NCBI GenBank assembly: GCA_963709145.1
Contig: CAVPVT010000053.1
Location: 15,819-79,818 of the forward strand
From: Parachlamydiales bacterium
GTDB lineage: Bacteria; Chlamydiota; Chlamydiia; Chlamydiales; Parachlamydiaceae
Reading direction: 5' to 3'
Length of the DNA stretch: 64,000 nucleotides
Positions 47,740 through 49,304 of this stretch are shown piece by piece. Below the pieces are notes generated by a model that made no database searches, was not told the origin of the DNA, and saw nothing but the letters and a program-made list of their open reading frames with translations. Made by a program: the position numbers and the translations under genes. The number at the start of each line of letters is the position of its first letter. The stretch's first letter is position 1.

Positions 47740-47889
47740 CCGGACTATCCTGGATTTGGAGAAAGCAGCTTTCCTTCATAGAAAGATTTTTCATACACGT
47801 TTGACAATTTGTCTTCGGTGATAGAAATCTCGACTTCATGAAGATTTCCCGGCGGCCAACATGACGTTCAACTCGCTTTGTTTTATGAT
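47740..47889 (+). pseudogene. two-piece remnant of the alpha/beta hydrolase gene at 49390-50298
   Basis: 47740-47826 is near-identical to 49603-49690. 47828-47889 is near-identical to 49995-50058. The ~305 bp between and both gene ends are missing, and an in-frame TAG replaces CAG. Confidence 0.75.
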
Positions 47890-47959
47890 ACTATATTAAA
47901 ATAATTGATTTTTAATCTAAAAAAATTATATAATATATTAAAAATTATAGAAATATATT

Positions 47960-49123
47960 ATGAGTTCTTTTAAAATAAATGATTGCGCAAACTCTTCAAC
48001 TACAGATTTGCCATTGATTTATGGATTTAGCGATAAAATTAAAATATATTTTGACTTGGCGAAAAACGTACTTTCATTAAAAATTGTAAACATTGCTTTA
48101 AAAATATTTAATAGCGAATATTTTCAAAATCTTCAAATAAAGCTGCAAAATTCGAATCGCCATATCCTATCGAGCTTAAATCATTCAAAATTACCTGAAG
48201 ATTTGAAACAGTACTTAGTTGTTAGAACAACAAATTTGCCTTCACTCCACACTCTTTTAGAAAAAAAAATTAATCCATCTATGATTCAGTGTTTTGATCA
48301 ACTCAAAACTCGAATTTCACAGGACCTTAAAAATTCAAGCGCTCATTTCGATGAAAAATATTTTAATCGTTTGAATGAATCATTTGATCAAAAAGAAAGC
48401 GATCTTAAAAACAAAAAGAGTAAACGCTGTTTATCGGGGGTTTGTCATGCAATGGTTGGTGTGGTTGCAAATGCTTTTCTTGAAAACCCTGAACCCGATA
48501 CGTCGTTATCAAAGATTGCAAAAATATACAATAGTGGAGTGGATGGGAAAGTAGCTGGAATGCAAGCCTTTTTTAATGAAATAACGCGTAGAAGTTCTTT
48601 TATTTTCCGTAATCATTTGCAAACTATTGATAGTCTTTTAGAAATCAATGCAGTTTCCATTCAACCCAGTCAATTAGATCTTGCTCAAGAAGGCCTCTTC
48701 CATGTTGCTTTGCCTTTTGGTCTTTTTTCAAATCATTCTATATTATTAAAATTAGAAAAAAATAAAACTCAAATATTGGATCCTAATTTTGGAGTGTTTG
48801 AATTTCCTACATTAAAAATTAAAGATTTTTTTAAGAGATACATTTCCTGTTATGAAAGTATATATCATATAAAAATAACTAACTCTGAAATAGATTCGCT
48901 GATTTCAAAAGAAGACTCAAAGATTTTTACCGAAGCCGCAGAGAAGTTTGAGGTACGTCAAATGCAAAGATCTGATAATTTCGAATGGAACTTTACATAT
49001 TCAGGAAATCATGTAGACCTTATCTGGAATCAAAAAATGAAAATTGATATCGTAGAAGGTCAATTGGTTTCAATCCCGGTTTCAAATAGAAGTACAACTA
49101 TCAAGAATAGTCCTATCACTTAA
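47960..49123 (+). CDS. hypothetical protein with a candidate papain-like Cys-His-Asp triad (YopT/AvrPphB, peptidase C58-like)
   Basis: 387-aa AT-rich ORF. Candidate triad: Cys162 in LSGVCHAMVG (TGT 48443-48445), His259 in FSNHSILL, Asp274 in ILDPNFGVFEF. The last 32 nt and the stop come from the ndh remnant. Confidence 0.5.
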   Translation: MSSFKINDCANSSTTDLPLIYGFSDKIKIYFDLAKNVLSLKIVNIALKIFNSEYFQNLQIKLQNSNRHILSSLNHSKLPEDLKQYLVVRTTNLPSLHTLLEKKINPSMIQCFDQLKTRISQDLKNSSAHFDEKYFNRLNESFDQKESDLKNKKSKRCLSGVCHAMVGVVANAFLENPEPDTSLSKIAKIYNSGVDGKVAGMQAFFNEITRRSSFIFRNHLQTIDSLLEINAVSIQPSQLDLAQEGLFHVALPFGLFSNHSILLKLEKNKTQILDPNFGVFEFPTLKIKDFFKRYISCYESIYHIKITNSEIDSLISKEDSKIFTEAAEKFEVRQMQRSDNFEWNFTYSGNHVDLIWNQKMKIDIVEGQLVSIPVSNRSTTIKNSPIT

Positions 49124-49304
49124 TGCAACTTTGTTATCCATGAACCCTGTTATCTTAGTGTTGTAAAAGATTTCTATGCCTCGCATAGAAAAAAGATCCC
49201 CAGCATATTTCTCAAGTCGTTCATCAAGTTCCGGCAAAAGAATTTTATTCGATTGTTTGCCATAAAAATCCTACTCATAGGTAATTAGGATAATTTATAC
49301 AATG
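49092..49304 (-). pseudogene. two-piece remnant of ndh (46382-47701) plus its upstream region
   Basis: 49092-49253 is near-identical to ndh 46903-47061. 49254-49304 is near-identical to 47677-47727 (the ndh start and upstream). About 620 bp between them is missing. Confidence 0.75.

Follow-up and report, generated by a model that had tools for sequence, protein, structure and literature searches.

In a 64,000-nucleotide stretch of a Parachlamydiales bacterium genome (GenBank assembly GCA_963709145.1, contig CAVPVT010000053.1, positions 15,819 to 79,818; hereafter the window), a gene for a protease-like protein lies between the type-II NADH dehydrogenase gene ndh and an alpha/beta-hydrolase gene (hyd), bracketed by broken pieces of both neighbors. 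Our analysis confirmed that the divergent ndh/hyd junction has been duplicated in direct orientation, that the duplication has decayed, and that the protease-like gene lies at the novel joint. The gene is the only one held by a 1202-nt segment (segment X, 47890..49091, plus strand). The intact ndh gene (46382..47701, minus strand; Pfam Pyr_redox_2 and NDH2_C) lies to the left of the structure, and the intact hyd gene (49390..50298, plus strand, 302 aa; Pfam Abhydrolase_1, E = 8e-37) lies to the right.

The window was compared with itself by self-BLASTN and a repeat search, the self-comparison that the original prediction had proposed. To the left of segment X, two hyd pseudogene fragments were found on the plus strand. 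Fragment hyd'a (47740..47827, hyd nt 214-301) matches 49603-49690 over 88 nt at 97.7% identity (E = 1e-38), and fragment hyd'b (47828..47889, hyd nt ~606-669) belongs to a match between 47826-47889 and 49993-50058 (66 columns, 90.9% identity, one 2-nt gap, E = 4e-19). To the right of segment X, two ndh pseudogene fragments lie on the minus strand: ndh'A (49092..49253) is equivalent to 46902-47063 (162 nt, 93.2% identity, E = 1e-64), and ndh'B (49253..49304), comprising the first 26 nt of ndh and 26 nt of its upstream sequence, matches 47676-47727 (52 nt, 90.4% identity, E = 1e-13). All four matches are plus/plus, collinear and in the order of their sources, with E-values of 1e-13 to 1e-65, and their coordinates as originally predicted were right within 1-2 nt. 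Neither segment X nor the four fragments had any further self-BLASTN match in the 64-kb window.

The order of the locus is thus ndh, 26 nt of its upstream sequence, a 12-nt filler, hyd'a, hyd'b, segment X, ndh'A, ndh'B, the intergenic region and hyd, so that the hyd fragments lie left and the ndh fragments right of segment X while the outer genes are intact. The 26-nt left copy of the ndh upstream segment (47702..47727), with which the left-hand homology to 49279-49304 ends, is absent in relatives. The intergenic region of the right-hand, intact junction (49305..49389) is orthologous from 49322 onward to the upstream region of the hydrolase gene in the comparison locus L043, and holds a promoter-like site (49324-49351) and a GGAGG ribosome-binding site. 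The duplicated unit comprises 46902-47727 (826 nt) and 49305-50058 (754 nt), that is 1580 nt, in agreement with the span of roughly 1.6 kb proposed earlier. At its permuted joint, hyd nt 669, the distal end of the unit, faces ndh nt 800, the proximal end, with 1202 nt between them, and segment X sits exactly there. Apart from the duplication itself, the repeat search and self-BLASTN of the window found no repeat at 46902 or 50058.

Each redundant half had been proposed to have lost internal pieces, and three deletions, of 298, 302 and 612 nt, account for this loss. In the inner hyd copy, the sequence equivalent to 49305-49602 (298 nt) is missing and the 12-nt filler AAATTCTTAACA (47728..47739) stands in its place; the filler occurs once in the window, and no source for it was found there. 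The 302-nt deletion separates hyd'a from hyd'b and left a scar with AA microhomology. Between ndh'A and ndh'B, 612 nt are missing, with a 1-nt overlap at the junction. The joint between hyd'b and segment X shows a possible imperfect microhomology of ~11 nt. Smaller lesions were also found: at 47779 in fragment hyd'a, CAG has become TAG, a derived nonsense change (polarized with L043/L045), and fragment hyd'b carries a frameshift through a 2-nt deletion. Over the four segments together, 22 of 363 positions differ from the intact copies (6.1%), and this divergence is homogeneous among segments (chi-square p = 0.31), which fits a single founding event.

The fragments do not derive from elsewhere. 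The ndh fragment is identical to the resident ndh gene at 151 of 162 positions, compared with 135, 130 and 124 of 162 for relatives, and hyd'a is 97.7% identical to the resident gene versus 93% to the closest ortholog. A foreign origin was considered for the ndh fragment, part of which (49155-49253) is 93.9% identical to L005, and was rejected, as the full 162 nt are clearly closest to the resident gene. With relatives as outgroups, six or seven of the 11 differences arose in the ndh fragment, four of them at first or second, non-synonymous codon positions. The functional ndh gene in turn acquired three or four changes, all at third positions, so that both branches carry derived changes. Together with the nonsense change, the frameshift and the 6.1% divergence, these polarized changes show that the fragments are old dead copies of the resident lineage.

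The genome is on record as one 92-kb NCBI/ENA contig and one sequencing run. Logan contigs of that run (ERR10755948), which were built with a different assembler, reproduce six of the eight joints. Two of these contigs, corresponding to window positions 46311-47769 (L002) and 47781-49194 (L001) and both 100% identical, carry the ndh-filler-hyd', hyd'a|hyd'b, hyd'|X and X|ndh' joints.

The composition of segment X is atypical. Its GC content is 29.1%, compared with 41% for the window, and the low-GC trough is bounded roughly by the joints of the segment. The open reading frame (ORF) for the protease-like protein (47960..49123, plus strand, 387 aa) has both the lowest GC content (30.6%) and the lowest third-position GC content (23.5%) of the 39 ORFs in the window, lying about 2.9 standard deviations below their mean (40.8%, standard deviation 3.6). 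Nearest homologs of the protein are 33-37% identical and occur in unrelated chlamydia-like contexts, never next to ndh or hyd. Segment X is probably foreign. A sigma-70-like promoter match (TTGATT-18-TATAAT, 47905..47934, plus strand), which is a consensus match only, lies 26 nt upstream of the ATG. As had been claimed, the ORF takes its last 32 nt, i.e. the final 10 codons and the TAA stop, from the antisense ndh remnant: the remnant starts at 49092 and the ORF ends at 49123. The conserved core of the protein family ends at W356, so that the borrowed part is confined to the tail and the gene is essentially whole.

The protein encoded by segment X shows the features of a C58-type (YopT/AvrPphB-like) Cys-His-Asp protease, as seen from its motifs and family profile. 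Its score against Pfam PF03543 (Peptidase_C58) is marginal (23.2 bits, gathering cut-off 23.0), and the homolog P0002 also carries this domain. The motifs GVCHAM, HSILL and LDPNFG follow each other in Cys-His-Asp order, and Cys162, His259 and Asp274 are invariant across 23 members of the family. The family profile has AvrPphB as its best match in the PDB (E = 2.9e-5), with the His/Asp block aligned to AvrPphB residues 122-175. A Foldseek search with an AlphaFold model of low confidence (mean pLDDT 59) also placed AvrPphB (1UKF) on top (E = 3e-5, TM-score 0.51 on the target); this was the only significant PDB neighbor, followed by the protease domains of lymphostatin, PCAT1 and MCF-like proteins. 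The order of the catalytic residues and the motifs are those of the C58 peptidases YopT, AvrPphB and the lymphostatin protease domain. The protein differs from them in sharing only 16% identity with AvrPphB, in a Pfam score just at the threshold, and in having a helical N-terminal region of ~150 residues and a beta-rich C-terminal region. Its family is also tiny, with 37 representatives among 1.8 billion proteins, so far only in uncultured genomes. The protein is probably a host-directed effector.

The dead fragments on both sides allow the condition of the protease-like gene to be judged. The redundant 1580 nt took three large deletions, and the surviving 363 nt took one insertion-deletion and one nonsense change. 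Scaled to the 1164-nt ORF, roughly 8-9 disruptive events would be expected, and none was seen; by these crude counts, the probability of an intact ORF under neutrality is roughly 1e-3 to 1e-4. Since the redundant DNA next to it was disrupted repeatedly and the ORF is intact, segment X is probably under selection.

The two neighbors were then compared with those of relatives. The ndh start on record is the second ATG at 47686 (MANKIK..., 434-aa form), which is likely the true start, and the protein is 86-88% identical to those of relatives. At 81-85% nucleotide identity, homology to ndh relatives stops at both ends of the ORF (46382 and ~47688; L003, L004, L005 and L041), and every close ndh relative has different neighbors on both sides, suggesting that the context of ndh is prone to rearrangement or exchange. 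The ortholog of hyd is the gene in L043/L044 (87% aa identity), where conservation extends upstream from 49322; there it lies between unrelated genes, without ndh. In L004 (7078-9305), L041 (1688-3915) and L042 (3-2233), a paralogous hydrolase gene (75% aa identity) lies 14 nt upstream of ndh in a co-directional, operon-like arrangement, whereas in the window the L043-type hydrolase gene is divergent from ndh. The ndh-adjacent hydrolase gene of L004 was considered as an ortholog, which would imply an inversion, and was rejected because the ortholog is that of L043/L044, where the upstream region is conserved too. The hyd gene was found next to ndh at none of the 33 loci from the ndh-alignment scan, the nearest being a Parachlamydiaceae metagenome-assembled genome (MAG) at 71%. 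No uninterrupted divergent ndh/hyd junction was seen in the ndh relatives (L003-L005, L041 and L042) or the hydrolase relatives (L043-L048), and none of the relatives, those from JGI included, shares the junction in either an empty or a filled form. As judged from these sequences, the divergent junction is specific to the lineage of the window. The original prediction had called this junction ancestral, which holds for the immediate ancestor; none of the relatives examined has it uninterrupted.

Other irregularities were noticed around ndh and hyd. In L003, one arm of a 97-nt inverted repeat (84.5% identity; 5026-5120 and 7904-7999) reaches up to the start codon of ndh, a further scar of rearrangement in the 5' flank of this gene. 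In L006, a Parachlamydiaceae MAG, intergenic 211-nt direct repeats (98% identity; 65-275 and 4961-5170) surround a 4.7-kb block with ndh. In the window itself, the GNAT and ndh genes converge on a near-perfect hairpin of ~170 nt (46209-46376), which lies ~6 nt past the stop codon of ndh. Its RNA has a minimum free energy of -127 kcal/mol (z = -20) and matches no Rfam family, and the hairpin may be a terminator for both directions or a palindrome that promotes recombination. Adjoining hyd downstream, a pair of overlapping minus-strand ORFs (50394-50958, 35-38% GC) encodes a Gp49-like toxin and an HTH_37 antitoxin, probably another accessory insertion.

A second locus in the window, at fic, has a related layout, with the order BTB gene (minus strand), intergenic region, fic' (16885-17212), X2 (17213-18705) and fic (minus strand). 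The fic' copy (16885..17212, minus strand) is a decayed partial copy of the 3' 711 nt of fic: in self-BLASTN, 16885-17003 matches 18706-18828 (92%) and 16989-17212 matches 19193-19416 (98%), and ~365 nt were lost between imperfect direct repeats of 14-15 nt. Segment X2 (17213..18705, plus strand) carries an F-box/TPR gene (17339-18637; Pfam F-box and TPR) and is followed by the intact fic gene (18703-19845, minus strand; Pfam Fic). A Logan contig (L077) is 100% identical to window positions 17180-18792 and spans both joints of X2. Divergence at this locus is 2.4%, compared with 6.1% at the ndh/hyd locus (p = 0.024), indicating a separate, younger, one-sided event. The suggestion that the two loci bear the same footprint therefore holds for the logic of the layout (A-B'-X-B-C), but the fic event is one-sided, only fic being duplicated, and younger. 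Likewise, the second locus put forward for a recurrent route exists and is confirmed by L077, but two loci in 64 kb do not establish recurrence. Four comparison loci with dispersed direct repeats were inspected (L006, L009, L015 and L031); their repeat copies were in part outside predicted ORFs and in part inside or overlapping them, and the permuted layout of neighbor fragments was absent from all four.

On balance, we favor the view that segment X arrived by insertion-duplication in one rearrangement, which placed it at the permuted joint, and that the inner halves decayed afterwards. In the immediate ancestor, ndh (minus strand) and hyd (plus strand) would have been divergent and ~126 nt apart. 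DNA in which segment X had previously been joined to a copy of the ndh-hyd junction may have recombined with the chromosome by a single homologous exchange, either a Campbell-type integration of a circle or an equivalent unequal sister-chromatid exchange primed by the donor strand. The product would have been ndh, the intergenic region and hyd up to nt 669, then segment X, then ndh from nt 800 back to its start, the intergenic region and hyd. A gene would thereby have been added and one intact copy of each neighbor kept with its regulatory region. The redundant inner halves would then have decayed neutrally through the three deletions, the nonsense codon, the frameshift and about 6% divergence, whereas segment X would have kept its 387-codon ORF and its own promoter-like site, now ending in the antisense ndh remnant. 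Such a single-event mechanism would be the most parsimonious, as it needs one event and three deletions. Both routes named in the original prediction, Campbell-type integration and duplication-joint capture, are reasonable proposals.

Several observations weigh against this proposal. No relative examined has an empty site, and the closest ones (ndh at 81-85% nucleotide identity) have entirely different neighbors, so that an insertion can be read only from within this genome. A circle would need two illegitimate joins before the exchange because both joints of segment X lie inside ORFs, and no circular form, plasmid backbone or donor of segment X is known. Other accessory genes in the window are also low in GC, although more mildly so (35-37%). 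The joints at 49253 and 49304/5 come from the deposited assembly alone. About 10 dispersed direct repeats of at least 50 nt were found in 74 comparison loci (878 kb); since such repeats are not rare, two loci in 64 kb are by themselves no enrichment.

A different, unlikely history would have segment X already resident, either downstream of hyd or convergent with ndh, when a larger block was tandemly duplicated and one copy of X was lost. Birth-and-death decay would then have trimmed the ndh and hyd copies, with no need for horizontal transfer or a circular intermediate. Tandem duplication and intergenic pseudogene fragments are documented for Parachlamydiaceae gene families (PMC4209131), deletions are clearly frequent at the ndh/hyd locus, and the convergent orientation of X (plus) and ndh' (minus) is compatible with a native arrangement. 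This history, however, needs one duplication and five deletions versus one event and three deletions, and the intact copy of X must have been lost while the 3'-truncated one was retained. No relic of a second copy was found at the three places searched, namely downstream of hyd, in the GNAT-ndh spacer and beyond the toxin-antitoxin module, and both the outlying composition of segment X and the fact that its homologs never adjoin ndh or hyd also speak against it. We consider it more improbable still that the locus arose in two steps, in which X disrupted hyd illegitimately at nt 669/670 and a wild-type ndh-hyd fragment from a sibling strain later restored hyd. In that restoration, by homology-facilitated illegitimate recombination, the fragment would be anchored by homology on the 3' side of hyd and joined illegitimately within the 3' end of X, which would leave the old 5' part of hyd and create ndh'. 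This scheme would explain the exact layout, the lost stop codon of X and the intact outer genes; the fic'-F-box-fic arrangement fits the same logic, and the processes are known in transformable bacteria (PMC3240628; PMC3784515). It nevertheless demands two independent rare events at one spot plus selection for the restoration of hyd, and three illegitimate joints versus two, and no donor allele is distinguishable, the divergence being uniform.

The joints themselves could suggest that a full 1.6-kb duplication never existed. Microhomology of 0-2 nt, one 12-nt filler and the possible ~11-nt imperfect microhomology are typical of microhomology-mediated joining, and template switching (as in microhomology-mediated break-induced replication or fork stalling and template switching, MMBIR/FoSTeS) or patchy templated repair might have produced the pieces directly. 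We give this little credence: on both sides, all pieces run in the same direction and order as their sources and are collinear with them, and their outer ends pass without a break into the intact genes; the internal loss in fic' between direct repeats of 14-15 nt is a classic secondary deletion; and the fragments are ~6% diverged, so that the deletions may be later than the structure itself. Least probable of all is an assembly artifact, with variant strains or a separate molecule having been joined into a chimera when the short metagenomic reads were assembled. The record consists of a single contig and run, the repeats are 90-98% identical, and the two right-hand joints lack independent support. 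Against this stand the Logan contigs, which are 100% identical across the four left and central joints and both joints of the second locus. Each repeat is also too short to exceed a read pair and can be told apart by diagnostic mismatches, and a mixture of strains would not give rise to deletion derivatives that are in order and include a frameshift and a nonsense codon.

The original prediction had stated that no insertion sequence (IS) or integrase genes are involved. Pfam scans covered the large ORFs of the window (≥150 aa), some overlapping shadow ORFs and the truncated ORF 9-464 being left out, and no IS or integrase domain was found among the ORFs scanned. Segment X also lacks the other hallmarks of IS elements, transposons and integrases: it has no transposase domain or tRNA target, the duplication that flanks it measures 1.6 kb and is no short target-site duplication, and the repeat search found no terminal inverted repeats at its ends. 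The only Rfam matches in the window are five tRNAs, the nearest lying >12 kb from the X locus. A search for plasmid or phage homologs of segment X found none, and its homologs in L039/L040 have no flanking duplications.

Several known systems resemble the locus in part. Campbell-type (single-crossover) integration, as with suicide plasmids, places the inserted DNA between direct copies of the homologous segment, keeps the neighbors intact if that segment spans their 5' ends, and requires neither a transposase nor a site-specific recombinase. Segment X is likewise flanked by direct copies of the junction with the outer genes intact, but it has no replicon backbone, evidence of a circle or plasmid or phage homolog, and its joints are illegitimate and inside ORFs. 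The minimal mobile elements of Neisseria are accessory genes between conserved neighbors that have no IS or integrase and are moved via flanking homology; their double-crossover exchange leaves no duplicated flanks. Segment X is similarly lodged between neighbors without IS or integrase, but has duplicated flanks. In Streptococcus pneumoniae merodiploidy, a short donor fragment pairs with non-contiguous sites on sister chromatids and a tandem duplication results (Johnston et al. 2013, PMC3784515). There, as proposed here, the donor fragment defines the joint of the tandem duplication, but the duplications span 100-900 kb and are bounded by pre-existing IS-derived repeats (PMC3784515), whereas the ndh/hyd unit measures 1.6 kb and neither of its ends bears a repeat. 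The F-box/BTB effector families of Parachlamydiaceae undergo birth-and-death evolution with tandem duplication and intergenic pseudogene fragments (Domman et al. 2014, PMC4209131). The kind of organism and the gene classes are the same (F-box, BTB and ankyrin genes occur in the window), but in those families the effectors are duplicated, whereas here duplication and decay affected housekeeping-type neighbors, and the joint has one copy of the accessory gene. Our literature searches found no description of this specific duplication-joint footprint.

Besides the F-box, BTB and ankyrin genes, the window, which comes from a Parachlamydiaceae-like chlamydia, encodes a two-component pair of a sigma-54 activator and a sensor kinase, MreB and SNF2. 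Other features of the window lie away from the two loci. At 21278-24609, an MptE-like gene is split into ORFs of 392, 251 and 144 aa, being a paralog of the intact gene at 26017-27501, and a gene of the metallo-beta-lactamase fold is split into ORFs of 191 and 106 aa; these broken genes suggest ongoing pseudogenization. Between tRNA-Arg(tcg) and an ORF with a RecO_N domain stands a tandem array (29639-30767) of 3-4 units of ~258-282 nt (88-94% identity), in which the small ORFs are probably spurious. At 32570-42127, a ShlB/FhaC-type transporter gene comes after a 2514-aa ORF that matches nothing in Pfam; the two resemble a two-partner secretion system whose orphan passenger is very large. Three tRNA-Gly genes (ccc, gcc and gcc; 61926-62193) stand in tandem, with a 95-nt period, upstream of the gene for trigger factor.

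The X locus is a footprint of gene gain without transposases, real but fairly ordinary. Obligate intracellular chlamydiae gain many eukaryote-like effector genes, yet how these genes physically enter can seldom be seen; at this locus the scar is still legible. The gain of segment X appears to have used no mobile element and neither neighbor was lost, and the dead flanking fragments provide an internal neutral yardstick that argues for selective maintenance of an orphan C58-like gene. That amoeba-associated chlamydiae routinely add single effector genes by insertion-duplication, without IS or integrase, we regard as doubtful at present. If true, a short duplication of the target would receive each new gene at its joint, so that no resident gene would be lost, and the decay of the inner copies would record how old each acquisition is, with the C58 locus (6.1%) and the F-box locus (2.4%) as two time points. 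Should the scar prove common genome-wide, it would represent a general mechanism of gene gain for chlamydiae; otherwise, the locus would be a nicely resolved local rearrangement.

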